From assembly GCA_965208685.1 (NCBI GenBank), contig CBDBPL010000005.1, positions 14,995 through 78,994 of the forward strand: a stretch of DNA of 64,000 nt, written 5' to 3'. The DNA comes from Paracoccaceae bacterium. GTDB taxonomy: Bacteria > Pseudomonadota > Alphaproteobacteria > Rhodobacterales > Rhodobacteraceae. Of the stretch, positions 36,307 through 62,946 are shown piece by piece (positions within the stretch are counted from its first letter, which is position 1; the number at the start of each line of letters is the position of its first letter). The translations under genes and the position numbers were made by a program. The notes beneath the pieces are model-generated. The model did no database searches and was not told where the DNA came from. It saw only the letters and a program-made list of their open reading frames with translations.

Positions 36307-36774
36307 TGTCTAAGGTCTCTTGGCTGATGGTTGATACTTGAAGATTTCCATCGGCGGCGCGTGAAAGGTAAGGTACCTGACATGCCGCTGATGGTCGCGC
36401 GCCGACGGCATTCCGGTCTGCAACGAGGCCGTTACTGAGCGCAGTGTTGGTCCACGAGAGTACCGCCTATCTCGTGCACGAGATAGCAGGCACTTTCCTC
36501 GGGTCGATTCCGGCTCGGTGCGAAATGACACTCTAAGCTTTTCGTGGCACAGTTCTGCGCCACCGGTATTCAAAGTCGCGCGGCCCGCTGCAGGACCCTC
36601 CATGCCAGTACGCCGTCCCCTTCATGCGTGAACATACCGGAAATCCCCGGAAATCAGGTTTTCTTCCATTTCCGGCCCAACTGGGGTTGCAAACAGCCCC
36701 AAGCTACAGCCAAAGGGACTGACTCAACTTCGTCTTCCTGTGGCGGATTCGGGACCTATGTTGGGAAAGGGCCT

Positions 36775-45372: not shown

Positions 45373-45486
45373 TGTGGAGTCGCGTTGAAAATTGACCCAC
45401 TTCGGGGGGTGATTCGCGTCCAAATTTGACCCACCCCAAATCAGGTGGAAACGCCTGCCTCGCAACGAATCAGCGAGGCAGTGGAG

Positions 45487-46992: not shown

Positions 46993-47717
46993 GACGCAAG
47001 GACATCCTGGAACTGATGGGCGCGCTCGGCCTGAAAGGCATGAAGGCCGCCTACGACGAGGTGCTCGCCGACGCCGCCAGGCGCAGCCATCCCCCGGAGC
47101 GGGTTCTCGGCACGCTGCTGAAGGCGGAGGTCGCGGACAAGAAGGCGCGCTCGATCAAGTACCAGCTGTCTGTCGCCAAGCTGCCGACGGCGAAGGAGCT
47201 CGACGGGTTCGACTTCACGCAGAGCCTTGTCGAGGAGCGGCCGCTGCGCCAGCTCGCGGACGGTTCCTTCCTCGATCCGCCGCGCAACATTGTCGCGATC
47301 GGCGGAACCGGCACGGGCAAGAGTCATATTGCCGTGGCCATCGCACGGGCCTGCATCCGCCGCGGCTGCCGGGGCCGATTCTTCAACGCCGTCGAGCTGG
47401 TCAACCTCCTGGAGCAGGAGCAGCGCGACGGCCGCCAGGGCCGTCTCGCCGACGCCATGCGCCGGCGGGACTTCATCATCATTGACGAACTCGGCTACCT
47501 GCCCTTCGCCCGCACCGGCGGGCACCTCCTGTTCCACTTCGTCTCCTGCCTCTACGAGCACACGCCGATGGTCATCACCACGAACCTCCCGTTCAAGGAA
47601 TGGGCCGAGGTGTTCGGGGACCCGCGGATGACCACGGCCCTGCTCGACCGGCTCACCCATCACTGCGACATAATCGAGACCGGGAACGAGAGCTGGCGGT
47701 TCCGGCACCGCAGCTGA
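46989..47717 (+). CDS. istB: IS21-family helper ATPase IstB
   Basis: Walker [16 protein letters not shown], Walker [13 protein letters not shown] and a typical IstB C-terminus. Confidence 0.9.
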
Positions 47718-47753
47718 ACGCCCGCCGCGGGATCGCGGGCGGGGCGGCACCCG

Positions 47754-48707
47754 TCACGCCTCGCCTTCGGGCCGTTCGCTCCAGACCGGCTCGCCCGCCG
47801 TCTCCCGCACGAGCAGGTCGTTCCAGTCCTCGCCCTCGACCGCCGGACGGCAGCGGACGACCCGGGGATCGGTCCGGGCGAGCCTGGCGGCGGCCGCGTC
47901 CCCCGCCCGGTCGGCGTCGTAGCCGCAGAGGATCCGGCGCAGGCGCCAGCCGTCCAGCCAGCGCGGGACCGATGTCGCGACGCCGGCGGCGGACACCGCC
48001 GCGAAGCCGCCGGATCCGGCCCACGGGAAGCTCCGCAGCGTCAGCACCGACAGCGCGTCGATCGCGCTCTCGACGAGAACCGCACGCTCCGGAGGAGCGC
48101 CGTCCAGCGCCATCCAGAACCCGCCCGACGCCTTCGACGATCCCGGCGCCATGGCCTTGAACGCGGCATCGCCGCCGCGGCGCCGGAGGCCGACGATCTC
48201 CGCTCCGGCCGCCTTGCCCGAGACGTCGCGGGAAACGAAGACCGCGTTCCCGCGGCGGTCCGCGTAGACCAGCCCGCGGGCGTGGCAGACCTGGAGCAGC
48301 ATCCCGCCGATGCCGCGTTCCGTGACGAGGTGATCGCGCACCTCGGGCCAGGAGGCCTGCGACCGGGCCGGGAGGTCGAGCCGCCGCCGGACTGCCGGAG
48401 CAGCCGCGCCGTCCCGGCGGTGCGGGCTGCAGAAGCGAAGCCCCTGCGCCGACAGGAAGGCGACGGCATCGCGGAAACCGTCACCGTGAGCGTGCATCAC
48501 CAGGCTGATCGCACCGCCGCCGCCCGTCCCGGACATGTGGTCGAAATACTTCTCGCCGTTGATGCTCAGGACGGATCCCGGCCGCTTCCAGCGCGCCTTG
48601 TCCCTCACGTCGCGGCGGTAGCCAAGCGCCGTCGCGACCCTGTCCAGAGGCAGCGATCGCGCGGTCGCCACCAGTCCATGCCAGTCAGCCTGGTCAAGCG
48701 TTCCCAT
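47754..48707 (-). CDS. DUF3991/Toprim-domain protein (TraC-primase-like), passenger inside the IS21-like element
   Basis: WKRPGSVLSINGEKYFDHMSGTGGGGAISLVMH (DUF3991-like) and AVLVESAIDALSV...CGYDADRAGD (Toprim). Lies between istB and the IS21 right-end repeats. Confidence 0.7.
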   Translation of the reverse strand: MGTLDQADWHGLVATARSLPLDRVATALGYRRDVRDKARWKRPGSVLSINGEKYFDHMSGTGGGGAISLVMHAHGDGFRDAVAFLSAQGLRFCSPHRRDGAAAPAVRRRLDLPARSQASWPEVRDHLVTERGIGGMLLQVCHARGLVYADRRGNAVFVSRDVSGKAAGAEIVGLRRRGGDAAFKAMAPGSSKASGGFWMALDGAPPERAVLVESAIDALSVLTLRSFPWAGSGGFAAVSAAGVATSVPRWLDGWRLRRILCGYDADRAGDAAAARLARTDPRVVRCRPAVEGEDWNDLLVRETAGEPVWSERPEGEA

Positions 48708-48830
48708 CTTCCCGTTCTCCCCGAGCCAAAACCCAACGCCGGAGCGGAATGCCCGGCAGGAGAATTGCTACTTGGAAAGGGAAGAGGCGGAAGGTGGGTC
48801 AAAATTGAACGCGATTCCTGGGTCAGTTTT

Positions 48831-48921
48831 GAACTTAATCTGAACTGCATTCTAATGTTGAGTAAGTGAGCTTAAGCCTCTGGAATCCCGAGATTCCAGA
48901 GGCTGATTTCTTGCCATTACG
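48831..48921 (+). repeat. RIT-1 left terminal inverted repeat (91 bp)
   Basis: Exact reverse complement of 61403..61493. Contains the hairpin cctctggaatc-ccga-gattccagagg. Confidence 0.9.
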
Positions 48922-49008
48922 GATTGCTTGCTGAGCCTGACAAATGGAAGGTTCCTCTGTTGATGGGCGTGGCCGCTTCCAGGCCATGTCACTTTTGAGG
49001 AGGACAAC

Positions 49009-49920
49009 ATGTCAGCGACACAACTTCCTGGTTCTGTCATTCTTGCCGGATTTCGACACTGGCTCGTGCAGCACCGTGGCATTTGCAGCAAATCGGTTGG
49101 GGTCCACCTGAGATACGCTGAAGATCTCATGGCCCTGTTCGGCGTTGCGATCGACGATCTTGACGCTGCTAGCGTACGCCATGGATTGCTCCTTCGCATC
49201 GAAGGTCTCAGCCAGTCGACGGCGCGCAGTATTTCCGCTTCTTTGCGATTGCTTTTGCGTTATCTCGCCTGTGCCGGGCTCTGTTCCGCCAGCCTTGAAG
49301 GTGCAGTGCCCCGTATCCCCGTCCATCGCCTTGCGGCATTGCCACAGTACATTTCGCCCGAGGACGTGGAAAAGACCATCGCAGCCTGCGATGCTGGCCG
49401 GCCGACGGGCATGCGCGACCACGCGATCATCCTGTTGCTGGCCAGACTGGGGCTTCGCGCCGGCGACATCATCGATCTGCGCATCGAGGATGTTGATCTG
49501 CGCAACGCCCTGGTGCGGGTCTCCGGCAAGTCTGGCCGAGAGACGGCGCTGCCACTGCCGCAGGATGCCGGTGACGCGTTGGTGGATTACATCGTGAACC
49601 ATCGCCCGAAGGTCGCAGAGTCGCATGTGTTTCTGAGTCATTTCGCACCATTTCGTCCATTTTCCGGCCCCAGTTGCGTTTCGAAGCTGGTGCGCCGCTG
49701 CTTCGACCGGGCTGGTGTCCAGACACCCGGCAGGCGGGGCGCCCACGTACTCAGGCATTCGGTGGCGACGAACCTGTTGCGATCAGGTGCATCGCTGGAT
49801 GCCGTCGGCGCCTTGCTGCGGCATCGGTTCCCGGCCACTACCGCGATCTACGCCAAAGTGGATGTGACCATGCTGGCCGAGGTTGCCGAACCCTGGATCG
49901 AGGGGGACGGCTCATGTTGA
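49009..49920 (+). CDS. tyrosine recombinase, first gene of RIT-1 (RitA position)
   Basis: ARLGLRAGDI...GAHVLRHSVAT...LRHRFPATTAIYAKV. ATGTTGA overlap with the next recombinase gene. Confidence 0.85.
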   Translation: MSATQLPGSVILAGFRHWLVQHRGICSKSVGVHLRYAEDLMALFGVAIDDLDAASVRHGLLLRIEGLSQSTARSISASLRLLLRYLACAGLCSASLEGAVPRIPVHRLAALPQYISPEDVEKTIAACDAGRPTGMRDHAIILLLARLGLRAGDIIDLRIEDVDLRNALVRVSGKSGRETALPLPQDAGDALVDYIVNHRPKVAESHVFLSHFAPFRPFSGPSCVSKLVRRCFDRAGVQTPGRRGAHVLRHSVATNLLRSGASLDAVGALLRHRFPATTAIYAKVDVTMLAEVAEPWIEGDGSC

Positions 49921-50741
49921 GGGAGGGTGTCGAGAGATACGTCGCCTTGAACCGGAAACTCGGCCGAAAATATCACCGGGAAGAAAGGCTGCTGCTGGAT
50001 TTTGCGAACTTCGCCGAGACAAAAGGTGACAGATTCGTTCACCCGGCGACCGCCGTCGCCTGGGCAGAGAGACCGTCCGCGCACCATTCGAAGATCAGGC
50101 TGCGTATCGTGCACAATTTCGCCGTGGCGATGAAGGCGGAGGACACGCGCCACGAGATCCCGCCCAAAGGCCTCTTTGGCGATGTCCGGTATCGGCGACC
50201 TTCTCCGTTCCCGTTCACTCGAGAGCAGGTTGCCCTCCTGATGAGTGCGGCGCTTTTGTTGCCAAACACCAAACCCTTTACACGTCGCACCTGGCATTGC
50301 CTGATCGGCCTGATGGCGGTTACCGGCATGCGGGTGTCGGAAGCCGTAGGCCTCCGTCTTGGCGATCTCACGGCCGATGGAGTGATCGTCCGCGACACGA
50401 AATTCGCGAAGACCCGGTTGCTTCCGCTGCATCCATCAACATGGAAGGCGCTGGATGCATACCTCATCGCGAGACTCGCCATGCCGACCTGCGACGACCA
50501 CCTGTTCGTTACCGCAGCCGGCACCCCGCCGACGACCGGAAACATCCGCAAGGCGTTCATCGCGATTGGCCGCCGCTGCGGATTGCGCGGCGGACCGGGG
50601 ACGGCGGGACCGCGCCTGCAGGATCTAAGGCACGGATTCGCGATTCGCGCTCTTGAGCGCCTGCCGGCAGGCGCGGATGTCGGCCGACACACACTGGCCC
50701 TGTCCACATATTTAGGCCATGCCAACGTGCAGGGCACGTTC
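49914..50741 (+). pseudogene. tyrosine recombinase, second gene of RIT-1 (RitB position), N-terminal 276 codons; interrupted by RIT-2
   Basis: ...MAVTGMRVSEAVGL...LRHGFAIRAL...YLGHANVQGTF, then reads into RIT-2 DNA. The frame resumes as FWYLDATPTIMRG... at 60318. Confidence 0.8.
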
Positions 50742-50910
50742 TGTCATGCCGCGCTCGGCATGACACTGCGAATGCCGACAATCCGGTAATGCCGAGCAAG
50801 GCGTGACGGAGCGTTGAATCAAAGGGGCTCAGGGCCGCTTTCGCTCGGCATTACTCCCGCAGCGATTCCGGGCAGGGTACGGCTCTCACTCAACAAACGG
50901 AGAGCATGCA

Positions 50911-52482
50911 ATGCCTGCAACATCCAAGTGCCGCGCCCTTGCGGAGACCCTTCTGGCCGAGTTCGACGGCCTCTCCCGTTCCTTCGCCGACGAGCGTCGG
51001 CGTCAGCGCGAGGGAAAGCTCTCGGAGAGCCGGCTCGACAACTACCGGTGCACAGCCCGTCACTTCCTGATCTGGCTCAGCCTCGCCGGGATCGAGCTGC
51101 GGGCGGTCGACGGCTCGATCATCCAGCGTTTCCTGCAGCACGAATGTCGTTGCGGTGCGTCCTGTGCGTCCGTCCGTGTCAGGCGTTGGAACAGGCGCCG
51201 CACGTCGGCCGAACTCATGTGGTTCGTCCGTTTCCTCGAGAGTGCGGGACACATCGAGACAACCGGCGAACTGGAAGACAACCTGCGTCTGCTGGATGCG
51301 TTCCTCGCCGGCTTGGGCGACGAAGGCTATACGGCCAACAGCGTCAAGTCCTTCCGCTACGCATGCACCGGTTTCATCGTCTGGCTGCATCTGTCCCGCA
51401 TCCGGCTCCGGGACCTGACACCGGATGTCTTCACGCAGTACCTGAACAAGGAATTCGTCTGCTCGATCCCCGGACTGTACAGCAGCCGCCGGAAGCGGGG
51501 CACGGAAGCCTGCCATGGCCAGCTGCGCGGTTTCCTCAGGCATCTCGTCTCGATCGGACGGATCGCCCCGCTGGAGCCCGTTCCGCTCGAGCCGGCGCTG
51601 CCCGCAAGGCTCGAGCGGTTCGCCCTCTGGCTTGAGCGCCATCGCGGCATCGCGCCGAGGAGCATACGCCAGCATGTCCGGGCAATCACGCGAATGCTGC
51701 CCGCGCTTGGGGACGATCCAGGCACATATGACGCATCGCTGATCCGGTGCGCACTGCTCGACGCGATGCGGCCCTGGTCGCACAGCACCGCCCAGCATCT
51801 GGCGACCTCCGTGCGCATGTATCTCCGGTTCCTGGTCTCGGAGGACAGCGTGCCCGCCACGCTGGTCGCGGCCGTGCCGTCGGCGGCCCAACGGCGCCTG
51901 TCCGGCCTGCCACGGCACATCCCGCCCGACGACGTCGAGCGTGCCATCGCCAGCTGCGGCGGGAATCCGGCCGGCCTGCGCGACCGGGCGATCCTGCTTC
52001 TGCTCGCCCGGCTCGCGCTGCGGGCGGGTGACGTTGCCGCCCTGCGCCTCGGGGACATCGACTGGGACAGGGCCGAGATCCGTGTCGCCGGAAAGTCGCG
52101 TCGGCAAGCGGCACTCCCGCTGCCGCAGGATGTTGGCGACGCCCTGCATGCCTACATCGCCAAGGCAAGGCCGGCGACCGATGAAGACAAGGTGTTCCTG
52201 CGCGCCATGGCCCCGGCGCGCGCCCTCGCGGCTCCAAGCACTGTCAGTGGCGTTGCGAAGCGCGCGCTCGACCGTGCCGGCGTCACGACCCTCGCGGGAC
52301 GCGGGGCGCACGTGTTTCGCCACAGCCAGGCCACCGGCCTGCTCCGGTCGGGGGCCGATCTCGATGTCATCCAGGCCCTTCTGCGTCACGCCTCGCCGGG
52401 CACCACCGCGATCTATGCCAAGACGGACACGGTCATGCTGCAGGAGGTTGCCCAACCCTGGATCGGGGGGAGCGCACGATGA
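50911..52482 (+). CDS. tyrosine recombinase, first gene of RIT-2 (523 aa, extended N-terminus)
   Basis: acggagag RBS. C-terminal catalytic region ARLALRAGDV...GAHVFRHSQAT...LRHASPGTTAIYAKT. About 200 aa longer at the N-terminus than its RIT-1 counterpart. Confidence 0.85.
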   Translation: MPATSKCRALAETLLAEFDGLSRSFADERRRQREGKLSESRLDNYRCTARHFLIWLSLAGIELRAVDGSIIQRFLQHECRCGASCASVRVRRWNRRRTSAELMWFVRFLESAGHIETTGELEDNLRLLDAFLAGLGDEGYTANSVKSFRYACTGFIVWLHLSRIRLRDLTPDVFTQYLNKEFVCSIPGLYSSRRKRGTEACHGQLRGFLRHLVSIGRIAPLEPVPLEPALPARLERFALWLERHRGIAPRSIRQHVRAITRMLPALGDDPGTYDASLIRCALLDAMRPWSHSTAQHLATSVRMYLRFLVSEDSVPATLVAAVPSAAQRRLSGLPRHIPPDDVERAIASCGGNPAGLRDRAILLLLARLALRAGDVAALRLGDIDWDRAEIRVAGKSRRQAALPLPQDVGDALHAYIAKARPATDEDKVFLRAMAPARALAAPSTVSGVAKRALDRAGVTTLAGRGAHVFRHSQATGLLRSGADLDVIQALLRHASPGTTAIYAKTDTVMLQEVAQPWIGGSAR

Positions 52483-53411
52483 CCGCCAGCATCAGCGACA
52501 ATGTCGCCCGCTTCGTCGAGACGAAGCAGGCGCTCGGCTACCGGTTCACGCAGAACGAACGGATTCTCAAGAGGTTCGCGCGCTTCGCCGAGGCCCGGGG
52601 CGAGACCTTCATCCGGGCCGCGACCGTGCTCGAATGGGCATCGTCGTCAAGGACGGCATCCTCGACGACGAAGATCAGGCTGCTGCGCTTCGTGCACGAC
52701 TTCGCCCTTTGGCTGCACGCAGAGGACGAACGCCACGAAGTGCCGCATCGCGATGCGCTGGGCCGCCGGCCCTCGTGGAGACCGCGACCCTTCCCGATGC
52801 CGGTTCCGGACATCCGGAAGCTGCTGGACGCGGCGCTGTCCCGGGGTCCGGCCGGGACCATCGCGCCGCTGACCTGGCACTACTTGTTCGGTCTCATGGC
52901 CTCGACCGGCCTGCGCATCGGAGAGGCGCTCGCATTGACGCTGGAGGACGTCACCGATGACGGTCTCGTCATCCGGGACACGAAGTTCGGGAAGACAAGG
53001 CTGGTCGTGCTGCACCCCACGAGCCGGGAGGCCCTGGATCTCTACCTGGCGGCACGTCTCAGGGAGAGGACTCCGGACCGGCATCTGTTCGTGATCGCGA
53101 CCGGCCGACCTCCCCAACGCGAACACGCGGACGTCGTGTTCCGCGAGCTTGCGGAACGGGCAGGCCTTCGAAAGCCCGGCGAAAGACGCGGACCGACCCC
53201 GCACTCGCTGCGGCACGCCTTTGCCGTCAGGTCCCTTGAGAACATGCCGCCCGGCGCCCGACCCGGGCGTCACATGCTCGCCCTCTCCACCACGCTTGGC
53301 CATGCTGAACTCATGAGCACGTTCTGGTACCTGGAGGCGACCCCTGTCCTTCTGCGCGGCATTGCCGAGGCCACGGAGCGCGCATTCGTGAACGGAGGGG
53401 CCGATGACTGA
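52479..53411 (+). CDS. tyrosine recombinase, second gene of RIT-2
   Basis: ...MASTGLRIGEALAL...LRHAFAVRSL...LGHAELMSTFWYLEATPVLL. 4-nt overlap upstream and 8-nt overlap downstream. Confidence 0.85.
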   Translation: MTASISDNVARFVETKQALGYRFTQNERILKRFARFAEARGETFIRAATVLEWASSSRTASSTTKIRLLRFVHDFALWLHAEDERHEVPHRDALGRRPSWRPRPFPMPVPDIRKLLDAALSRGPAGTIAPLTWHYLFGLMASTGLRIGEALALTLEDVTDDGLVIRDTKFGKTRLVVLHPTSREALDLYLAARLRERTPDRHLFVIATGRPPQREHADVVFRELAERAGLRKPGERRGPTPHSLRHAFAVRSLENMPPGARPGRHMLALSTTLGHAELMSTFWYLEATPVLLRGIAEATERAFVNGGADD

Positions 53412-53754
53412 TCTTGCCCCCCACCTCACGGCCTTCCTGCTGGAGCACCTTCCTGTCGAGCGGCGCTTCAGCCGCCATACCGTGCAGAGCTACAGGGAAT
53501 GCTTCCGGCTGCTCGTCCCCTACGCTGCCAAACGGGTCAAGACCCGTCCCTGCACACTGAAGATCGAGCACCTTACGGCCGCGCTCGTTCTGGCTTTCCT
53601 CGACTTCCTGGAAAGCGAACGCGGAAACGGCGTCAGCACCCGCAACAATCGTCTCGCCGCGATAAAGTCTTTTTTTCGCTACCTGGAGTACCGTGTCCCG
53701 GAGTGCCTCGATCTGGCGTTCGCAGGTGCGCGCGATTCTGCGCAGCAATGATGC
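53404..53754 (+). pseudogene. third recombinase gene of RIT-2, N-terminal fragment (frameshifted, then cut by IS66-A)
   Basis: MTDLAPHLTAFLLEHLP...NRLAAIKSFFRYLEY parallels RIT-1 60401... After ECLDLA the homologous reading (SQVRAILRS) is in another frame. Confidence 0.7.
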
Positions 53755-53830
53755 GTAAGCGTCATTTTAAGCCCATACCGGGATTTGCTTGACGGCAAAC
53801 AGGTTTCGGGATCCGGGCTGAAGGCCGCTT

Positions 53831-55522
53831 TCAGCGATTCCCTGCGCGGGCGTCGAAGTTCCAGGGCAGCAGCTCGTGGATCCTCGACATCGGGTGTCCG
53901 GCGGCGATCCTCTCCAGCACGTGCCTGAGCCAGGCATACGGCTCGACGCCGTTCATCTTGCAGGTCTCGATCAGCGTCGCGGCGCGGGCCCACGAGACCG
54001 CGCCTTCGTCGTGGCCGGCGAACAATGCGTTCTTTTTCGTCAGCTTCAGCGGCCGGATTCGATTCTCCACGAAGTTCGTGTCCATCTCGACGCGGCCGTC
54101 GTGCAGGAACACCAGAAGGCCGTCCCAGTGGTTGGCGAAGTAGGCCAGCTTCTCGCCGAGGCGCGAGCGCGGAGACACCCGCGAGCGCTGCTCGTCGAGC
54201 CAGACCCCGAAGGCGTTGACCAGCGGCGCCGACTCCGTCCACCGCACGAACTGGCGCGTTGCCGGATGCTCGCCACGGATCCTGTCCTCGATCGCGTAGA
54301 GCTGCGCGATCCGGGCCAAACCCTCCCTGGCGATCGGCGAGCCGCTGGAATCGTGGACCTCCTTGATTCCGCGTCTACCGTGGGTCCAGCAATACGCAAG
54401 GGTGAGCGCCCCGCCGGGCCGGTCATGCCGGCGCAGCCGGTTGTACCCGGAATAGCCGTCCACCTGCAGCGTTCCGGAGAACCCTTCGAGCAGGGCCTCG
54501 CCATGCTTGCCGCCGCGCCCGGGCGCGTAGCCGTAGACGACGCCCGGCGGGTCCGAGCCCGACCATGGCCGCTCGTCGCGCACCATCGTCCACATGTAGC
54601 CCTGCTTGGTCTTGCCGCGCCCGGGGTCGAGAACCGGAACCGGCGTCTCGTCCATGCCGAGCTTGCCCGACGCCTTCAGGTCAGCCGCCAGGCAGTCCAC
54701 CAGCGGGCGGAGATGGAACGACGCCTTGCCGACCCAGTCGGCAAGCGTCGCGCGGTTGATCTCGATCCCCTGGCGCGCGAAGATCTGCCCCTGGCGGTAA
54801 AGCGGCAGGTGGTCCGCGAACTTCGACACGATCACGTGCGCCAGCAGCGCCTCGGTCGGAAGCCCGCCCTCGATCAGCGCGGGCGGGGCCGGTGCCTGGA
54901 CCACGCCGCCGCCCTTGCACCTGTTGCAGGCGTAGCGCGGGCGAACCGTCTCGATCACGACGCACTTCGCGGGGACGAAGTCCAGCCGCTCGCTGCGGTC
55001 CTCGCCGATCTTTGCCATCTCGCCGCAGCCGCAGGGGCAGAGCGTGCTCTCGGGCTCGATCACCTCGGTGCGGCGCTCGACATGCTCCGGAAAGCGGAGC
55101 CCGGAGCGGGCCGGGCGCTTCCGCCGGCGGCGGGTCGCGCTTCCCTCGTCCTCGCAGTCTTCGGCGGGAGGCTCGACGTCGGCCTCGGCGGCCGCGATCC
55201 CGAGGTCCTCGAACGACAGCTGGCGATCGTCGGGAGGGAGCTTCTCCGACTTCTTGCCGAACAGGAGCTTCCGGAACTCGTCGTTGAGATGCTCGAGGCG
55301 ACGGACCTGTTCGGAGAGGTCCGCGTTCTCGGCTCCAAGCCGCGCCGTCTCAGATGCAAGGCGCTCGGCTTCAACCTTCTGGCGCTTCGCGCGTTCCTGC
55401 GCCGTCCGGCGCGCCGAGCGCTCCTCGTCCAGCCGGGATTCCATCTCGGCAAGGGCTGCGGAGACAACCGCCATGGGAACCGAGCCGTCGGCGCCGGGGA
55501 TGATGGAAGGCAGGGTCGTCAT
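53831..55522 (-). CDS. tnpC: IS66-family transposase TnpC (copy A)
   Basis: Leucine-zipper N-terminus, zinc-finger CPCGCG...C..C and a DDE core. Typical IS66 Orf3 length. Confidence 0.9.
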   Translation of the reverse strand: MTTLPSIIPGADGSVPMAVVSAALAEMESRLDEERSARRTAQERAKRQKVEAERLASETARLGAENADLSEQVRRLEHLNDEFRKLLFGKKSEKLPPDDRQLSFEDLGIAAAEADVEPPAEDCEDEGSATRRRRKRPARSGLRFPEHVERRTEVIEPESTLCPCGCGEMAKIGEDRSERLDFVPAKCVVIETVRPRYACNRCKGGGVVQAPAPPALIEGGLPTEALLAHVIVSKFADHLPLYRQGQIFARQGIEINRATLADWVGKASFHLRPLVDCLAADLKASGKLGMDETPVPVLDPGRGKTKQGYMWTMVRDERPWSGSDPPGVVYGYAPGRGGKHGEALLEGFSGTLQVDGYSGYNRLRRHDRPGGALTLAYCWTHGRRGIKEVHDSSGSPIAREGLARIAQLYAIEDRIRGEHPATRQFVRWTESAPLVNAFGVWLDEQRSRVSPRSRLGEKLAYFANHWDGLLVFLHDGRVEMDTNFVENRIRPLKLTKKNALFAGHDEGAVSWARAATLIETCKMNGVEPYAWLRHVLERIAAGHPMSRIHELLPWNFDARAGNR

Positions 55523-55591
55523 GCCGCCACATGTAGCGTAACGGCGCCTGCCTGGCAACAGGATGTGCCGGTTTTTCGCTTGCTTTCGAGG

Positions 55592-55942
55592 CTATTCCGC
55601 CGCAAGCGGGCGGATGGCCGGCGGCGCATGGACGCGGCGCCAGTCCAGCCCCTCGAACAGCGCCTCGAACTGGCCGCGCGTGAGCCGCATCGCGCCGTCC
55701 CTGATCCCGGGCCAGGCGAAGCGGCCCTGCTCCAGCCGCTTGTAGACAAGCACAAGGCCGGTCCCGTCCCAGGCCAGCATCTTCAGCCTGTCGCCCCGCT
55801 TCGACCGGAACACCACGATCACGCCGGTATGGATGTCGACGCCGAGCTCCAGCGCCGCCGTCGCGGCAAGCGCGTCGTGGCCGCGGCGAAAGTCCACGGG
55901 CCGGGTCGCCAGCAGGATCCGCTGCGAGCCGGGAATGATCAT
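55592..55942 (-). CDS. tnpB: IS66 Orf2 / TnpB (copy A)
   Basis: MIIPGSQRILLATRPVDFRRGHDALAA...RGDRLKMLAWDGTGLVLVYKRLEQGRFAWP (116 aa). ATGA overlap with tnpA. Confidence 0.9.
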   Translation of the reverse strand: MIIPGSQRILLATRPVDFRRGHDALAATAALELGVDIHTGVIVVFRSKRGDRLKMLAWDGTGLVLVYKRLEQGRFAWPGIRDGAMRLTRGQFEALFEGLDWRRVHAPPAIRPLAAE

Positions 55943-56643
55943 CGCGCCCGCTCCAGCCCCGAGGCCACCGCGACGATGCGCTCCACGGGGCAGTCCCAGG
56001 GAAGCCGCACCACGACCTCCCCGGCCTCGACGGTGACCGAAGGCGACGGGGCCGGACCATCGATGCGCGGGGCCGCGTCCACGGCCGCGCCGGCCGGGGG
56101 CGTTCGGGTCGCCGGCGCCGCAGCCTCCGGAACGGGCCCGAGCTTGCCCTCCCGCGCCAGGACGCGCCATTCGGAGAGCGTTGACCGGGCCACGCCGTGA
56201 CGCCTCGCCGCCGACCTGAGCGAGCCGCCGGGCGCGAAGCTCTCCGCGACGATCCGGGCCTTCTCGGATACAGGCCAGCGCCGTTGCGCCCGATGGCTGC
56301 CGGCCTTGGAAGCGGCGACCGAAGCGGACGTCGTGGGGTCGGCGTCTTCGCCGACGACAACGGGCACCACGGCGGGCACTGCAGGAACCCCCGGCACGGG
56401 GCCAAGCTCGCCCCGCGCCGCCTGCTTGCGCCAAAATCTCAGGGTTGACTCGGCCACGCCGTGGCGGATCGCCACGGCATTGATCGAGGTGCCGGACAGG
56501 TAAGTCTCCGACACGAGCCGGGCCTTCTCGGAATCAGGCCAGTGACGGCGCATCTGGAAAGGGTCAGGTTGGCTTGGAGACGCCGGCGCCGCGCAATGCT
56601 CGGCTGCGGCATGGCCCGTAGCGGCCGGGGAAACATCCGTCAT
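55939..56643 (-). CDS. tnpA: IS66 Orf1 / TnpA-like protein with duplicated HTH module (copy A)
   Basis: Two repeats of the RRxWPxSEKARIV..S...G.S....ARRHGVA.STL..WR pattern. Start taken as ATG 56643; the ORF is open to 56682. Confidence 0.75.
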   Translation of the reverse strand: MTDVSPAATGHAAAEHCAAPASPSQPDPFQMRRHWPDSEKARLVSETYLSGTSINAVAIRHGVAESTLRFWRKQAARGELGPVPGVPAVPAVVPVVVGEDADPTTSASVAASKAGSHRAQRRWPVSEKARIVAESFAPGGSLRSAARRHGVARSTLSEWRVLAREGKLGPVPEAAAPATRTPPAGAAVDAAPRIDGPAPSPSVTVEAGEVVVRLPWDCPVERIVAVASGLERAR

Positions 56644-56743
56644 CGAAATCCTCCTGGGAAAGTTCAGCTTCGTGGCGAACACTGAACGTGAAAATCCCCG
56701 GGCGGGAAACGGCGCAGAGGTATGGGCTTAAAATGACGCTTAC

Positions 56744-56884
56744 GCAGAAGCGCTGCCGACAGGCCAGCTGATCGACTGGCTCGACCGGACGGAGATGCAG
56801 GCGATCTGGATGCACCGGACACCGGGACCGTGGCAGGACTGCGCGACCGCGCAATGATGCACCGGCGCTGCGCCGCAAGGCTCC
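56744..56884 (+). pseudogene. 141-bp internal fragment of the third RIT-2 recombinase gene, trapped between the IS66 copies
   Basis: Reads QLIDWLDRTEMQAI in one frame and LDAPDTGTVAGLRDRAMMH in another. Compare RIT-1 KLVDWLERDELQALLDAPSLSTRGGLRDRAMMH. Confidence 0.65.
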
Positions 56885-56960
56885 GTAAGCGTCATTTTAA
56901 GCCCATACCGGGATTTGCTTGACGGCAAACAGGTTTCGGGATCCGGGCTGAAGGCCGCTT

Positions 56961-58652
56961 TCAGCGATTCCCTGCGCGGGCGTCGAAGTTCCAGGGCAGC
57001 AGCTCGTGGATCCTCGACATCGGGTGTCCGGCGGCGATCCTCTCCAGCACGTGCCTGAGCCAGGCATACGGCTCGACGCCGTTCATCTTGCAGGTCTCGA
57101 TCAGCGTCGCGGCGCGGGCCCACGAGACCGCGCCTTCGTCGTGGCCGGCGAACAATGCGTTCTTTTTCGTCAGCTTCAGCGGCCGGATTCGATTCTCCAC
57201 GAAGTTCGTGTCCATCTCGACGCGGCCGTCGTGCAGGAACACCAGAAGGCCGTCCCAGTGGTTGGCGAAGTAGGCCAGCTTCTCGCCGAGGCGCGAGCGC
57301 GGAGACACCCGCGAGCGCTGCTCGTCGAGCCAGACCCCGAAGGCGTTGACCAGCGGCGCCGACTCCGTCCACCGCACGAACTGGCGCGTTGCCGGATGCT
57401 CGCCACGGATCCTGTCCTCGATCGCGTAGAGCTGCGCGATCCGGGCCAAACCCTCCCTGGCGATCGGCGAGCCGCTGGAATCGTGGACCTCCTTGATTCC
57501 GCGTCTACCGTGGGTCCAGCAATACGCAAGGGTGAGCGCCCCGCCGGGCCGGTCATGCCGGCGCAGCCGGTTGTACCCGGAATAGCCGTCCACCTGCAGC
57601 GTTCCGGAGAACCCTTCGAGCAGGGCCTCGCCATGCTTGCCGCCGCGCCCGGGCGCGTAGCCGTAGACGACGCCCGGCGGGTCCGAGCCCGACCATGGCC
57701 GCTCGTCGCGCACCATCGTCCACATGTAGCCCTGCTTGGTCTTGCCGCGCCCGGGGTCGAGAACCGGAACCGGCGTCTCGTCCATGCCGAGCTTGCCCGA
57801 CGCCTTCAGGTCAGCCGCCAGGCAGTCCACCAGCGGGCGGAGATGGAACGACGCCTTGCCGACCCAGTCGGCAAGCGTCGCGCGGTTGATCTCGATCCCC
57901 TGGCGCGCGAAGATCTGCCCCTGGCGGTAAAGCGGCAGGTGGTCCGCGAACTTCGACACGATCACGTGCGCCAGCAGCGCCTCGGTCGGAAGCCCGCCCT
58001 CGATCAGCGCGGGCGGGGCCGGTGCCTGGACCACGCCGCCGCCCTTGCACCTGTTGCAGGCGTAGCGCGGGCGAACCGTCTCGATCACGACGCACTTCGC
58101 GGGGACGAAGTCCAGCCGCTCGCTGCGGTCCTCGCCGATCTTTGCCATCTCGCCGCAGCCGCAGGGGCAGAGCGTGCTCTCGGGCTCGATCACCTCGGTG
58201 CGGCGCTCGACATGCTCCGGAAAGCGGAGCCCGGAGCGGGCCGGGCGCTTCCGCCGGCGGCGGGTCGCGCTTCCCTCGTCCTCGCAGTCTTCGGCGGGAG
58301 GCTCGACGTCGGCCTCGGCGGCCGCGATCCCGAGGTCCTCGAACGACAGCTGGCGATCGTCGGGAGGGAGCTTCTCCGACTTCTTGCCGAACAGGAGCTT
58401 CCGGAACTCGTCGTTGAGATGCTCGAGGCGACGGACCTGTTCGGAGAGGTCCGCGTTCTCGGCTCCAAGCCGCGCCGTCTCAGATGCAAGGCGCTCGGCT
58501 TCAACCTTCTGGCGCTTCGCGCGTTCCTGCGCCGTCCGGCGCGCCGAGCGCTCCTCGTCCAGCCGGGATTCCATCTCGGCAAGGGCTGCGGAGACAACCG
58601 CCATGGGAACCGAGCCGTCGGCGCCGGGGATGATGGAAGGCAGGGTCGTCAT
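56961..58652 (-). CDS. tnpC: IS66-family transposase TnpC (copy B)
   Basis: Identical translation to 53831..55522. Confidence 0.9.
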   Translation of the reverse strand: MTTLPSIIPGADGSVPMAVVSAALAEMESRLDEERSARRTAQERAKRQKVEAERLASETARLGAENADLSEQVRRLEHLNDEFRKLLFGKKSEKLPPDDRQLSFEDLGIAAAEADVEPPAEDCEDEGSATRRRRKRPARSGLRFPEHVERRTEVIEPESTLCPCGCGEMAKIGEDRSERLDFVPAKCVVIETVRPRYACNRCKGGGVVQAPAPPALIEGGLPTEALLAHVIVSKFADHLPLYRQGQIFARQGIEINRATLADWVGKASFHLRPLVDCLAADLKASGKLGMDETPVPVLDPGRGKTKQGYMWTMVRDERPWSGSDPPGVVYGYAPGRGGKHGEALLEGFSGTLQVDGYSGYNRLRRHDRPGGALTLAYCWTHGRRGIKEVHDSSGSPIAREGLARIAQLYAIEDRIRGEHPATRQFVRWTESAPLVNAFGVWLDEQRSRVSPRSRLGEKLAYFANHWDGLLVFLHDGRVEMDTNFVENRIRPLKLTKKNALFAGHDEGAVSWARAATLIETCKMNGVEPYAWLRHVLERIAAGHPMSRIHELLPWNFDARAGNR

Positions 58653-58721
58653 GCCGCCACATGTAGCGTAACGGCGCCTGCCTGGCAACAGGATGTGCCG
58701 GTTTTTCGCTTGCTTTCGAGG

Positions 58722-59072
58722 CTATTCCGCCGCAAGCGGGCGGATGGCCGGCGGCGCATGGACGCGGCGCCAGTCCAGCCCCTCGAACAGCGCCTCGAAC
58801 TGGCCGCGCGTGAGCCGCATCGCGCCGTCCCTGATCCCGGGCCAGGCGAAGCGGCCCTGCTCCAGCCGCTTGTAGACAAGCACAAGGCCGGTCCCGTCCC
58901 AGGCCAGCATCTTCAGCCTGTCGCCCCGCTTCGACCGGAACACCACGATCACGCCGGTATGGATGTCGACGCCGAGCTCCAGCGCCGCCGTCGCGGCAAG
59001 CGCGTCGTGGCCGCGGCGAAAGTCCACGGGCCGGGTCGCCAGCAGGATCCGCTGCGAGCCGGGAATGATCAT
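58722..59072 (-). CDS. tnpB: IS66 Orf2 / TnpB (copy B)
   Basis: Identical translation to 55592..55942. Confidence 0.9.
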   Translation of the reverse strand: MIIPGSQRILLATRPVDFRRGHDALAATAALELGVDIHTGVIVVFRSKRGDRLKMLAWDGTGLVLVYKRLEQGRFAWPGIRDGAMRLTRGQFEALFEGLDWRRVHAPPAIRPLAAE

Positions 59073-59773
59073 CGCGCCCGCTCCAGCCCCGAGGCCACCG
59101 CGACGATGCGCTCCACGGGGCAGTCCCAGGGAAGCCGCACCACGACCTCCCCGGCCTCGACGGTGACCGAAGGCGACGGGGCCGGACCATCGATGCGCGG
59201 GGCCGCGTCCACGGCCGCGCCGGCCGGGGGCGTTCGGGTCGCCGGCGCCGCAGCCTCCGGAACGGGCCCGAGCTTGCCCTCCCGCGCCAGGACGCGCCAT
59301 TCGGAGAGCGTTGACCGGGCCACGCCGTGACGCCTCGCCGCCGACCTGAGCGAGCCGCCGGGCGCGAAGCTCTCCGCGACGATCCGGGCCTTCTCGGATA
59401 CAGGCCAGCGCCGTTGCGCCCGATGGCTGCCGGCCTTGGAAGCGGCGACCGAAGCGGACGTCGTGGGGTCGGCGTCTTCGCCGACGACAACGGGCACCAC
59501 GGCGGGCACTGCAGGAACCCCCGGCACGGGGCCAAGCTCGCCCCGCGCCGCCTGCTTGCGCCAAAATCTCAGGGTTGACTCGGCCACGCCGTGGCGGATC
59601 GCCACGGCATTGATCGAGGTGCCGGACAGGTAAGTCTCCGACACGAGCCGGGCCTTCTCGGAATCAGGCCAGTGACGGCGCATCTGGAAAGGGTCAGGTT
59701 GGCTTGGAGACGCCGGCGCCGCGCAATGCTCGGCTGCGGCATGGCCCGTAGCGGCCGGGGAAACATCCGTCAT
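59069..59773 (-). CDS. tnpA: IS66 Orf1 / TnpA-like protein (copy B)
   Basis: Identical translation to 55939..56643. Confidence 0.75.
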   Translation of the reverse strand: MTDVSPAATGHAAAEHCAAPASPSQPDPFQMRRHWPDSEKARLVSETYLSGTSINAVAIRHGVAESTLRFWRKQAARGELGPVPGVPAVPAVVPVVVGEDADPTTSASVAASKAGSHRAQRRWPVSEKARIVAESFAPGGSLRSAARRHGVARSTLSEWRVLAREGKLGPVPEAAAPATRTPPAGAAVDAAPRIDGPAPSPSVTVEAGEVVVRLPWDCPVERIVAVASGLERAR

Positions 59774-59873
59774 CGAAATCCTCCTGGGAAAGTTCAGCTT
59801 CGTGGCGAACACTGAACGTGAAAATCCCCGGGCGGGAAACGGCGCAGAGGTATGGGCTTAAAATGACGCTTAC

Positions 59874-60222
59874 CTTCCTGAGCGCCCGCGGACGGGCGTT
59901 GAGCACGGACGGCTTTGCCTACATTCTCGACCGGCATGTCGCCAAGGCGGTCCTGGAGACTCCGTCGCTGGCGGGCAAGCGGGTGACCCCGCATGTGCTG
60001 CGCCACGCAACGGCAATGAGCGTCCTGCATGCCTGTCGGGGAGACCCGCGCAAGGTCTCGCTGTGGCTCGGCCATGCCGATGTCAGGACCACCGAAGACT
60101 ATCTCAGGGCGTGTCCTGCCGAGAAGATGGAAATCCTTGAAGCCCATGCGCCGCCCTCCATCCGGCGGGGGAGCTTCAAGGGCGTGAAGGACAGCCTGAT
60201 GAAGGTCCTGGAAGGCAAGTGA
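59874..60222 (+). pseudogene. third recombinase gene of RIT-2, C-terminal fragment
   Basis: ...FLSARGRALSTDGFAYILDRH...RVTPHVLRHATAMSVL...LWLGHADVRTTEDYLRA parallels the RIT-1 third gene. About 60 codons between this and the 141-bp fragment are missing. Confidence 0.75.
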
Positions 60223-60317
60223 CCGTCGGGAGTAATGCCGAGCGAAAGCGGCCCTGAGCCCCTTTGATTCAACGCTCCGTCACGCCTCGCTCGGCATTAC
60301 CGGATTGTCGGCATTCT

Positions 60318-60404
60318 TTTTGGTACCTTGACGCAACGCCGACCATCATGCGGGGAATCGCCGACGATGCCGAGAGAATGCACCTTGGGCAGGTGTCGTC
60401 ATGA
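60318..60404 (+). pseudogene. C-terminal 28 codons of the RIT-1 second recombinase gene
   Basis: FWYLDATPTIMRGIADDAERMHLGQVSS-stop. ATGA overlap with the third gene at 60401. Confidence 0.75.
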
Positions 60405-61402
60405 CGGCCATCGCCCCGCACGTGAGCGCGTTTCTGCTCGAGCACCTGCCACATGTTCGTGGCGCAAGTGTCCACACGGTCAAGAGCTATGCCCATGCGA
60501 TCAAGCTGTTTGTCGTGTTCGCCGGCGAACGGCTCGAACGGCAGCCTGCGCTGATCGACATCGGACAACTTGATGCTCAACTGGTGCTGGACTGGCTTGA
60601 CTGTCTGGAAAACGACCGGGCCAACAGCGCGAGCTCGCGCAATGTCCGTCTCGCGGCAATCAAGTCCATGTTCCGCTTCCTCGAGTTGCGGATGCCGGAA
60701 AGTCTCGGCCTGTCCCGACAGATCCATGCCATCCCGGCAAAGCGTTGCGAAAACAAGCTCGTCGACTGGCTTGAACGCGATGAGTTGCAGGCTTTGCTCG
60801 ATGCCCCGAGTCTCAGCACACGTGGCGGTCTGCGCGACCGTGCCATGATGCACCTGACCTATGCCTGTGGGCTTCGGGTCTCGGAGTTGACATCTCTCAC
60901 ACTTGCCAGCCTGAACTGGCCGGGTCCGCAAAGTGTCCGGATCAGAGGCAAGGGTCGGCGAGAAAGAGTGATGCCGCTGTGGCATGCAACCCAGGAGATT
61001 CTCGGTCTGTGGATCGACCGTCGGCCTCCTCTCAAGCACGACGGCTTGTTCCCGAATGCTCGTGGCGGGATCATGAACCGACACGGCTTCGCGTCCCGTC
61101 TCGCAGTCCACGTCGAGGCCGCCAGTCGTGCATGTCCGTCCTTGGCCCGCAAGAATGTCACTCCTCATGTACTTCGACACAGCTGCGCGATTCACGTCCT
61201 GCAGGCCACCGGCGACATTCGGAAGGTATCGATATGGCTTGGACACGCCTCGGTGACGTCCACGGAAACCTATCTTCGAGCGCTTCCGGACGAGAAACTC
61301 TCCATTCTGAACAGCCACCCTGCACCGAATCTGGAGAAGGGACAGTTCGGCGACGTCGAGGACTCTCTGATCTCGTTACTCGACAGCCTCCGGACCGGTT
61401 AA
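60401..61402 (+). CDS. tyrosine recombinase, third gene of RIT-1 (RitC position)
   Basis: ...YACGLRVSELTSL...VTPHVLRHSCAIHVL...IWLGHASVTSTETYLRA. The stop abuts the right IR. Confidence 0.85.
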   Translation: MTAIAPHVSAFLLEHLPHVRGASVHTVKSYAHAIKLFVVFAGERLERQPALIDIGQLDAQLVLDWLDCLENDRANSASSRNVRLAAIKSMFRFLELRMPESLGLSRQIHAIPAKRCENKLVDWLERDELQALLDAPSLSTRGGLRDRAMMHLTYACGLRVSELTSLTLASLNWPGPQSVRIRGKGRRERVMPLWHATQEILGLWIDRRPPLKHDGLFPNARGGIMNRHGFASRLAVHVEAASRACPSLARKNVTPHVLRHSCAIHVLQATGDIRKVSIWLGHASVTSTETYLRALPDEKLSILNSHPAPNLEKGQFGDVEDSLISLLDSLRTG

Positions 61403-61493
61403 CGTAATGGCAAGAAATCAGCCTCTGGAATCTCGGGATTCCAGAGGCTTAAGCTCACTTACTCAACATTAGAATGCAGTTCAGATTAAGTTC
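61403..61493 (-). repeat. RIT-1 right terminal inverted repeat (91 bp)
   Basis: Exact reverse complement of 48831..48921. Confidence 0.9.
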
Positions 61494-61530
61494 AGAATGT
61501 TGAGCTCAACATTCTGAACTGGACTTGACA

Positions 61531-62799
61531 CGTGGCGTCCTCCGATGCCGTGAGGTCCGGCGCATCCGGTCCCGGCAGGCCGATCCGTTCCAGCGCCGGC
61601 AGCACGTCCTGCTCCAGCGCCCTGGCCATGCCGGGGTCGAGATCCTTGTGCAGGCACAGGAGCGGCCTGCCGCCGAGCGCGTTGACCCAGTAGCTCGTCG
61701 AGGCGGGCAGGCAGAGCTTCTGCCGCGACACGAAGTGCTTCGGAAGCCGTCCCTTCCGGCCCGCGTAGACCTTCACGTGCCCGTCCACCGCCAGCGTGGC
61801 GACCGTGTCGCCGCCGTCCGCCATCCAGTCCCGCGCGAGCGCGTCCTGCCAGCCCTTCACCCGCCGCTCGTCCGCCGCGAGCGCCCGGACCTTGCGCCGC
61901 AGCGTCTTCGCCTCCGGGCAGCGGTCCAGTCCGAGGACCGCGCCCCACTCCCCCGGCGCCTCGTGGCGGAGCGCCTCGGGGTTGCGGACCCGGGCCAGGA
62001 ACAGGAACGCGAGAAGGAGAAGCGTGCTCGTCAGCCCGTAGTAGCCCTTCGGCAGCGACAGGAACCTGTCCGCGTGCTGCAGGAGGCCCTCCTCCAGCAG
62101 CGCCGGCAGCGCGGCCAGGACGCCGCCGCAGGCGACCGCCGACAGCGGCTCGTCGAAGCGCGGCTGCGCCTCCGCCATCGCCCCCGCCGAGGCCGCGACG
62201 CGGCCCGCGCTGTCGCGCGCGGCCCGGCCCATCGGCGCCGCCCGGTCGCGCCGGTCCCGCCCGCTGCGGCCGAGCGGGGCTTCACGGACGGCGGACGCCG
62301 TGCCGGTTTCCGTCTCCGCAACCTCCGGTTCGGGCCGCGGCCTGGCGCCGCCGGGCATTCCGTCGCCGATGAAGCCCCGCCGGCGGTTGTGGTTGAGCGT
62401 CGCGACGGAGACCCCGAGCTCCCTGGCGGCGGCCGCGCCGCTCATGCCCTCGGCCAGGAGACGGTTCGCCGCGTCCGCCGTCTCCCCGGTTATCGCGCTG
62501 GTGCCCCGGCCCCGGCGCGGCTCGTGGAACGCCGCCTCGCCCCTGTCCCGGAGCTTGTCCAGCGCCCTGTGCACCGTCGTGCGGCTGATGCCGAACGCCG
62601 CCTGCAGGTCCCTGTGGGGGATGCCGTGCCTGGCGAACCTGGCGACCCGCAGCAGCATCGCCGGGCGGTCGTCCTCGCCGTGGCAGTCGAAGGGCTCGAG
62701 GTTGGAGAAGTAGACGGTCTGGCCGTCGTCGGACGCGAAGGAGAAGCATGAGGCGCCGATCTGGGCGGCTTCCGGGGGGCTGACGGGGAGTGTGTTCAT
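61531..62799 (-). pseudogene. N-terminal part of the outer IS transposase (423 codons)
   Basis: HTH modules (FGISRTTVHRALDKLR; ARELGVSVATLNHNRR), then ...ATLAVDGHVKVYAG...LTASEDAT before reading into the IS21 end. Rejoined with 44344..45366 it gives about 763 aa. Confidence 0.7.
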
Positions 62800-62946
62800 G
62801 AGGCTCTGGCCTGAAATGATGTTTCATATTATATTATCAGACCTTGGCCGCGCCTGTCAAGCCGGAAATCCGGAAAAACTCCTTGTCTTGCGGGGAAAAC
62901 CGGCCCTCCCGACACACGAAATCAAGTCACGAGGTCAGGACCTCTG

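Follow-up and report, generated by a model that had tools for sequence, protein, structure and literature searches.

The analysed window, 64,000 nucleotides from a Paracoccaceae bacterium (contig CBDBPL010000005.1, positions 14,995 to 78,994), holds between 44300 and 63998 a six-level nest formed by a UvrD-type helicase gene, a Transposase_29 element, an IS21-like element, two recombinase-in-trio (RIT) elements, which we call RIT-1 and RIT-2, and two IS66 copies. RIT-1 interrupts the IS21-like element in its right terminal repeat, RIT-2 splits the ritB gene of RIT-1, and the ritC gene of RIT-2 is itself split by two identical IS66 copies lying 141 bp apart in the same orientation. The subject of this analysis is the palindrome that stands beside one inverted repeat (IR) of each RIT, and what it implies about how these elements insert.

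Both elements have the composition by which RITs are defined in the literature, namely their gene content and IRs. All six rit genes yielded the Pfam Phage_integrase domain, with a SAM-like N-terminal domain found instead in the head of the broken ritC. A comparison of catalytic residues, covering the HxxRH and tyrosine motifs, showed both in RitA and RitC of RIT-1 and in RitA, RitB and the RitC tail of RIT-2; in RitB of RIT-1 (49914-50743), LQDLRH replaces the HxxRH of other Rit proteins, placing Gln at the first His of box II. Neighboring genes overlap, by 7 bp (ritA/ritB) and within an ATGA (ritB/ritC) in RIT-1 and by 4 bp (ritA/ritB) and 8 bp (ritB/ritC) in RIT-2. Gene for gene, the two elements show 51% (A-A), 45% (B-B) and 49-53% (C-C) identity, and the A-B-C order is kept in relatives. 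The RIT elements of Cupriavidus metallidurans CH34 and C. necator pHG1 likewise consist of three adjacent, overlapping tyrosine-recombinase genes, A-B-C, between inverted repeats. The IR arms of RIT-1 measure 95 nt (48827-48921 and 61403-61497) and those of RIT-2 measure 90 nt (50770-50859 and 60227-60316), both pairs being 99% complementary. Near-identical RIT elements occur at different sites. In the following lists M0, M1 and M2 denote copies of a 10-bp motif and X denotes a 6-bp hexamer. The parts of RIT-1 are:

48830 to 48835: far-junction hexamer X, TGAACT, the same letters as 61515-61520
48836 to 48921: left IR, with M1 at 48836-48845, M2 at 48853-48862 and an internal hairpin at about 48876-48903
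49009 to 49920, plus strand: ritA, 303 aa
49914 to 50743, plus strand: 5' part of ritB, cut in the Thr-Phe-Trp codons
60323 to 60403, plus strand: 3' part of ritB, from the catalytic Tyr codon to the stop, with the ATGA overlap with ritC
60401 to 61402, plus strand: ritC, 333 aa
61403 to 61488: right IR, with M2 at 61462-61471 and M1 at 61479-61488
61489 to 61494: inner hexamer X, AGTTCA
61495 to 61514: palindrome, M0 (GAATGTTGAG) followed by inverted M0 (CTCAACATTC)
61515 to 61520: outer junction hexamer X, TGAACT

Those of RIT-2 are:

50738 to 50743: outer junction hexamer X, GTTCTG
50744 to 50763: palindrome, M0 (TCATGCCGCG) followed by inverted M0 (CTCGGCATGA), 9/10 complementary and perfect in the relative L139
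50764 to 50769: inner hexamer X, CACTGC
50770 to 50859: left IR, with M1 at 50770-50779, M2 at 50787-50796 and an inverted motif copy at 50841-50850
50911 to 52482, plus strand: ritA, 523 aa
52479 to 53411, plus strand: ritB, 310 aa, with its own Thr-Phe-Trp-Tyr site at about 53324
53404 to 53754, plus strand: 5' part of ritC
56744 to 56884, plus strand: 141-bp middle piece of ritC, between the two IS66 copies
59874 to 60222, plus strand: 3' part of ritC, with about 48 codons lost between it and the middle piece
60227 to 60316: right IR, with M2 at 60290-60299 and M1 at 60307-60316
60317 to 60322: far-junction hexamer X, TTTTTG, the uninterrupted allele of the relative L150

A preliminary description of this DNA had recorded an 8-6-8 palindrome (61494-61515) beside RIT-1 and a 9-6-9 palindrome (50742-50765) beside RIT-2, the latter within 28 bp left unexplained. 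Both palindromes are real. The first forms the core of a perfect 32-bp palindrome at the right end of RIT-1 (61489-61520), the longest perfect one in the window. The second, in the imperfect palindrome that opens RIT-2 (50738-50769), is more exactly 10-4-10 and in the register used here spans 50744-50763 with 9/10 pairs. The 28 bp do exist as 50742-50769, although in the present register the extra DNA is the 26 bp from 50744 to 50769, preceded by a copy of the hexamer. The recurrence of the arm motifs inside the IRs was likewise borne out (TAATGTTGAG at 48853-48862, TAATGCCGAG at 50787-50796). Each RIT-1 IR also contains a conserved hairpin with a 12-bp stem (cctctggaatc...gattccagagg; 48876-48903 and 61421-61448), which is kept in L049 (1270-1297), a relative with 81% identity.

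A palindrome beside an insertion could be a feature of the target that was there beforehand, the RITs having inserted beside it as IS110/IS1111 or IS200/IS605 elements do at REP-like (repetitive extragenic palindrome-like) hairpins. The genome indeed holds a REP-like palindrome family of about 44 bp with the core CTATCTCGTG/CACGAGATAG, in at least 8 copies (window 36467-36486; G000:C7:1396986, 1401098, 1412266 and 4124365, among others), and one of these adjoins what is left of a ritC gene (C7:4124139-4124414), the contact falling precisely on the Arg-His codons of that remnant. The 20-bp palindrome at 36467-36486 was considered as a solo RIT scar, which its membership in this family ruled out.

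Uninterrupted target sites, however, are without the palindromes. In four elements close to RIT-1, whose RitC proteins fall in its 90% cluster, the uninterrupted ritB reads ggcac-TTTCTG-gtacc (L148, L149, L151) or ggcac-TTTTTG-gtacc (L150), with one hexamer and no palindrome, while the window ritB reads ggcac-GTTCTG, the 26 bp, RIT-2, and then TTTTTG-gtacc. Removal of RIT-2, the 26 bp and one hexamer, so that 50743 is joined to 60323, restores the frame with GTFWYLDATP, collinear with intact RitB proteins; RIT-2 thus does split RIT-1 ritB in the Thr-Phe-Trp-Tyr-Leu codons, as had been proposed. Among the contigs of four sequencing runs that were compared, one from run X5 contains this RIT-1 at about 99% identity and continues past 50737 into DNA other than RIT-2, the depth of RIT-2 there being almost nil. 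At the RIT-1 site, joining 48835 to 61521 yields a 27-bp terminal repeat that matches the left end of the IS21-like element gap-free at 21/27 positions. The same reconstituted end also runs collinear over 27/27 positions with its uninterrupted counterpart in a related element of genome G602, the two agreeing at 21/27; the G602 end served as the reference because the copy on contig C7 of the same genome stops 13 bases short of the site. In addition, the reconstituted IS91 and IS66 targets of other RITs read through in frame with a single hexamer (AYNSC-RNRHCPKC in IS91 transposases, TDMRKGFDGLA in IS66 TnpB).

Further observations run the same way. The arms follow the element's own motif, and the same palindrome accompanies relatives in unrelated targets. 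The RIT-1 palindrome is a single copy in the 5.1-Mb genome, and a search of 400 other genomes of the class, allowing one mismatch, did not find its central 18-mer; this yielded no relatives and excludes a common target motif. A pre-existing target palindrome is refuted for both window cases, and as a general explanation for RITs it has almost no credibility left; the empty sites in ritB and in the IS21-like end indicate that both palindromes belong to the elements and not to their targets. Target arms resembling M0 or M1 were also sought, with unconvincing results, RIT-1 reaching 7/9 only after a 1-base shift.

The preliminary description had suggested collecting many RIT junctions to look for adjacent palindromes, and other RITs do show them. 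RITs were gathered by protein, ignoring the palindrome, from 80 metagenome loci found with a RitC profile and from the loci of close relatives; 30 elements with at least 32 bp of flank on both sides were scored and 28 were parsed for register. A 20-bp palindrome (at least 9/10 pairs) is present at exactly one end in 19/30 RITs and, at that threshold, at both ends in none of the 30. At random positions in the same loci, 9/10 pairs are reached in 0.25% per end, and 10/10 was never seen in 8050 places. Three further elements have an odd geometry, with a 2-3-base center or with the palindrome inside the IR called by BLAST, for a total of 22/30.

All 28 parsed elements share one layout. The palindrome end reads flank, X (6 bp), M0 (10), inverted M0 (10), X (6), M1 (10), 7 bp, M2 (10), and the other end reads flank, X, M1, 7 bp, M2. 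M0, M1 and M2 have the common consensus TWATGYNGAG, which M0 matches at 7-8/10 positions across lineages. The middle of the motif is lineage-specific, and the palindrome arms track the IR motif of their own lineage (ATGTTGAG, ATGCCGAG, ATGCGGAG, ATGGGGAG). The palindrome lies to the right of the genes in 17 of the 28 and to the left in 11, and the side switches between close kin: RIT-1 has it on the right and L049 (81% RitC identity) on the left, with the same center, and RIT-2 has it on the left and L139 (95% RitB identity) on the right. The shared layout and the common motif lead us to consider it probable that each palindrome is part of its own RIT and consists of the two outermost copies of a recombinase-type motif, M0, placed back to back.

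Other searches returned little. Near and distant BLAST comparisons of both RITs and the IS21-like end with plasmids gave no match, a DNA search in 200 genomes of the family gave weak matches only, and a RitC scan of the genome contigs gave one distant locus only; no other complete RIT was found in the source genome. Two fragments were noted. In L012 (G016:C32), one of the weak matches, positions 1500-1610 hold a stretch that resembles an IR (77% identity to the right IR of RIT-1) and, after it, a near-palindrome (AATGTTGAA/CTCAACAT), with no obvious recombinase trio upstream. At G000:C2:10803-10845 and G000:C7:1611557-1611603 (L003 and L004), 43 bp that remain of a RIT-2-like end (hexamer, M1, 7 bp, M2) directly follow the stop codon of a class II aldolase gene, in a region duplicated as a whole on the two contigs.

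Where exchange takes place is a separate question. The palindromes had been proposed as possible crossover or core sites, which would put the crossover at their GNGCTC center. Much of that proposal stands: the palindromes are owned by the elements, built from IR motifs and recurrent in most related RITs, and they do offer a testable model for insertion. The center itself does not stand as the crossover. A strand exchange in a 6-bp center (GAGCTC or GCGCTC) between arms of 8-9 bp, as at lox or dif, is suggested by the 8-6-8 and 9-6-9 geometry and by arms that carry a recombinase-type motif. It would, however, leave half a palindrome at each end, and the palindrome is never split in integrated copies; in 22/30 elements it is instead whole at one end and absent from the other. 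Moreover, the center belongs to the 10-bp motif, being the last three motif bases (GAG, GTG or GAT) meeting their own complement, and M1 and M2 also end in GAG, with no palindrome there. The center differs by lineage (GAGCTC, GTGCAC, GATATC), allows 0-3 extra bases and shows no likeness to the targets. The joints with the target also lie elsewhere, 16 bp from the center or at the hexamer before the first IR motif. Exchange in the palindrome center is therefore highly unlikely.

The hexamers, in turn, behave as junctions. The outer hexamer at the palindrome end and the hexamer at the far end form a direct repeat, with a mean identity of 4.78/6 (1.78 in permuted pairs, with a maximum of 2.71 in 2000 permutations); the two are identical (6/6) in 13 of 27 elements and unequal in 14. 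These direct repeats, together with the targets that read through, place the element-target joints at X, which is 10-16 bp from the palindrome center at one end and directly before M1 at the other. The core of a tyrosine recombinase usually takes the form of inverted arms around a short spacer, as in Cre/lox and Xer/dif. Since a 6-bp X lies between M0 and M1, the arrangement M1-X-M0 has precisely this geometry (10-6-10); it is present in 28/28 parsed elements and would occur twice in each model joint. From these alignments, the crossover most likely lies in the flanking 6-bp X spacers and not in the GNGCTC center.

These features can be combined into a model. Excision would join both junction hexamers to form a circle whose joint reads M2-M1-X-M0/M0-X-M1-M2, a mirror-symmetric attachment site in which two complete cores share the palindrome. 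Integration would then swap strands in one X spacer with a 6-bp stretch of the target; because the exchange would use a single X spacer, both M0 copies would remain at one end and X would flank the insert as a direct repeat. Whether the palindrome came to lie before ritA or after ritC would depend on which core was used, or on a flip of the body between the inverted cores. Mismatches in X would be tolerated in the exchange, so that one junction could retain the hexamer of the donor site. The cleavage positions, and which Rit protein would bind which motif, are assigned in the model only.

The model predicts that, as seen from the target, the palindrome should always lie on one side. Although it is found on either side of the rit genes, its side relative to the target is indeed constant in each of the four target families that have several members: in 4/4 insertions in the IS91 zinc finger, 4/4 in a conserved gene, 3/3 in IS66 tnpB and 3/3 in ritB. 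Exceptional copies are also instructive. In three palindrome-free copies (L075, L110, L136) one and the same half of the target flanks the element twice, in inverted order, and in two copies with a palindrome at each end (L149, L159) it is the other half that appears twice. Such zero- and two-palindrome copies fit the reciprocal products expected of exchange between two copies, or between the inner core and a second target. The two-palindrome copies span L149 2700-5920 and L159 2200-6100; the flank of each palindrome in L149 keeps no more than the final 10 bases of an IS21-like end before unrelated DNA begins. One further element, with identical RitB, is present at ten places, and a slight asymmetry of its palindrome reveals which way round that palindrome lies. 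Among these places all four pairings of side with orientation are represented, which requires both inversion of the body between inverted cores and use of either core. On balance we favor the view that RITs use a mirror-symmetric double attachment site, two 10-6-10 cores with a shared 20-bp palindrome, which would permit integration in either orientation, flipping in place, and loss or gain of the palindrome, with the spacers recording the previous site and with lineages homing to codon strings of other mobile genes, one of them parasitising RITs beside the catalytic Tyr of RitB.

Several points weigh against this reading. A clear palindrome is missing from 8/30 elements. The 6-bp register depends on the chosen boundaries of the 10-bp motif and could be one base off on either side. 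The direct repetition of X cannot be wholly separated from the symmetry of IR and palindrome, and all three hexamers are identical in 8 elements. No circular contigs were found among the collected loci, and no circular joint, empty site made by excision, or cleavage was observed. The model is also untestable on this strain, both window RITs being dead: RIT-1 because its ritB is cut by RIT-2, and RIT-2 because its ritC is cut by the IS66 copies. Part of the palindrome anatomy may already have been described in Ricker et al. 2013. Lastly, M0 drifts between close relatives yet stays self-complementary, which suits a role in DNA structure as well as one in protein binding.

The last point favors a different reading of the palindrome, as a DNA fold (hairpin or cruciform) by which one end is marked or protected, or as the relic of a hairpin intermediate, with exchange taking place beside it. 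The two halves are perfectly complementary in 18/28 elements, although M0 differs among close kin (RIT-2, L137, L138) in which M1 and M2 are kept, and hairpin intermediates were proposed by Nielsen et al. 2017 (PMC5737581), who found RIT DNA enriched after exonuclease treatment and no circular joint. Across lineages, however, M0 holds to the motif consensus, at 7-8 of its ten positions, and the far end is without any M0. A fold-back copy of one end also predicts an outer hexamer that is always complementary to the inner one, whereas in four elements (L065, L077, L080, L083) it is closer to the hexamer of the far junction than to the inner hexamer. We regard a purely structural palindrome as improbable, and consider below the targets in terms of the double attachment site.

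Target choice is lineage-specific, RIT-1 inserting in the terminal repeat of an IS21-like element and the RIT-2 lineage in ritB. Kin of RIT-2 (at least 84% RitB identity) lie at the same ritB codons. L137 splits a ritB at DTYW/YLEATP and has its palindrome beside the upstream half. On either side of L136 stands the 3' end of a ritB gene, the two genes being different. L139 adjoins a recombinase gene that is interrupted at LGHRSIRSTYW, and the gene that holds L138 is an unrelated one, entered at the look-alike string TTACTG/GTACAT. The protein string at this site, the RitB family motif T-[YFH]-W-Y-L, is nearly universal in RitB (53 distinct DNA versions in 94 matches), and the corresponding target string for the RIT-2 lineage would be TACTGGTACC. 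The recurrence of RIT-2 kin at the same codons, within a string so widely shared, indicates at the sequence level that the nesting of RIT in RIT is homing of the RIT-2 lineage to NTWCTG/GTAC, the Thr-Phe/Tyr-Trp-Tyr codons of other RITs' ritB. The close relatives of RIT-1 lie in the same IS21-like repeat and are possibly not independent events; L049 lies at a similar string (GGGTCASTTT, then TGRAC). More distant relatives of RIT-2 have YAcAr genes and the IS91 zinc finger as their targets. Two RIT lineages (L152-L161 and L162-L167) were seen in such surroundings, one in YAcAr-domain genes beside Toprim genes and the other in IS91 transposases that have a separate integrase gene ahead of them, where it stands between the zinc-finger domain and the Y2 domain.

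The two junction hexamers of RIT-2 differ, GTTCTG standing beside the palindrome and TTTTTG, the empty-site allele of L150, at the far end. The two third-codon differences between them are synonymous, both encoding Thr-Phe-Trp, and GTTCTG is the string present in RIT-2's own ritB. The simplest reading of this one case is that GTTCTG was carried in by RIT-2 from an earlier insertion in another ritB. Donor-derived junction sequence is also known for Tn916. For strand-biased circularizing integrative elements (SE) and Tn554, both donor-derived hexamers and a 6-bp footprint have been described (PMC10214605).

The outer levels of the nest were reconstructed as follows. An IS21-like element occupies 45373-61530 and is bounded by a duplication of CGTGGC; the earlier placement of RIT-1 in the end of such an element holds. 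The Transposase_29 gene is also present intact at about G000:C7:98,000 (L007), where CGTGGC occurs once. Besides istA and istB, the IS21-like element carries a Toprim-domain gene. The remaining features of the nest are:

45367 to 45372: left target duplication of the IS21-like element, CGTGGC (6 bp), inside the Transposase_29 gene, present in one copy in the intact gene on G000:C7
45373 to 61530: IS21-like element, whole
45373 to 45399: left terminal repeat of the IS21-like element, beginning TGTGGAG, with the 21/27 gap-free match to the reconstituted right terminal repeat
45445 to 46992, plus strand: istA (rve, Mu-transpos_C_2)
46989 to 47717, plus strand: istB (IstB_IS21)
48803 to 48829: inner part of the right terminal repeat of the IS21-like element, the target DNA left of RIT-1
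53755 to 56743, minus strand: IS66-family element copy 1, with its transposase on that strand, skipped by contigs of runs X1 and X9
56885 to 59873, minus strand: IS66-family element copy 2, identical to copy 1 over about 2990 bases
61521 to 61530: right end of the IS21-like element, its last 10 bases (GGACTTGACA), the target DNA right of RIT-1
61531 to 61536: right target duplication of the IS21-like element, CGTGGC
62922 to 63998, minus strand: UvrD-type helicase gene, the outermost level

Neither IS66 copy (53755-59873) has an 8-bp target duplication. Copy 1 is preceded on its left by 16 odd bases similar to the part of ritC near copy 2, and to the right of copy 2 about 48 ritC codons are gone. 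Contigs of runs X1 and X9 contain a related ritC that has no first IS66 copy (joint 53720 to 56768).

The proposed attachment site shares features with several known systems. Tn916, CTnDOT (with its coupling sequences), Tn554 and SE are, like RITs, moved by tyrosine recombinases, and in them the 6-bp exchange region need not match the target and the donor hexamer is carried along, which the unequal hexamers of RIT-2 fit. Those elements have asymmetric ends and one joint core, whereas RITs have long IRs, two putative mirror cores sharing a palindrome, three recombinases, and no partner of the Xis, Tfp or TnpC type. In Xer/dif, Cre/lox and FLP/FRT, two inverted arms surround a 6-8-bp spacer, to which the 10-6-10 of M1-X-M0 corresponds; unlike in those systems, the RIT cores stand back to back, their shared arms have no spacer between them, a direct copy (M2) lies 7 bp inside, and the cleavage site is predicted from sequence. 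Invertible switches of the FimB/FimE type likewise have inverted sites at both ends, which in RITs would let the body flip in place; such a flip would be a side reaction of the transposon, and no regulatory output of it is known.

To our knowledge, RIT movement has never been reproduced. RITs have been reported in many phyla and are widespread, and in a 2023 table their movement, target specificity and target choice are entered as not tested (PMC10214605). Known RITs likewise lie inside other mobile DNA, IS66 tnpA and radC being recorded insertion sites and pHG1 carrying a "maze" of recombinase genes (Van Houdt 2009, 2012, PMC3414803; Janssen 2010, PMC2864759; Smyshlyaev 2021, PMC8138268). An attachment site, crossover position, target rule, one-sided 20-bp palindrome, 6-bp spacers and ritB homing are absent from the RIT literature compared (PMC3414803, PMC2864759, PMC8138268, PMC10214605; Ricker et al. 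2013 lies outside the comparison), and the repeated insertion of a RIT-2 sub-lineage at the Thr-Phe/Tyr-Trp codons of ritB is new here. For the RIT family, the anatomy described here indicates which 6 bp would be cut, which 10-bp words would be bound, how a circle joint should read and which short strings would serve as targets. It would also account for the frequent place of RITs inside other mobile elements and inside each other, and the model predicts that RITs rearrange their surroundings by inversions and by exchange of flanks.

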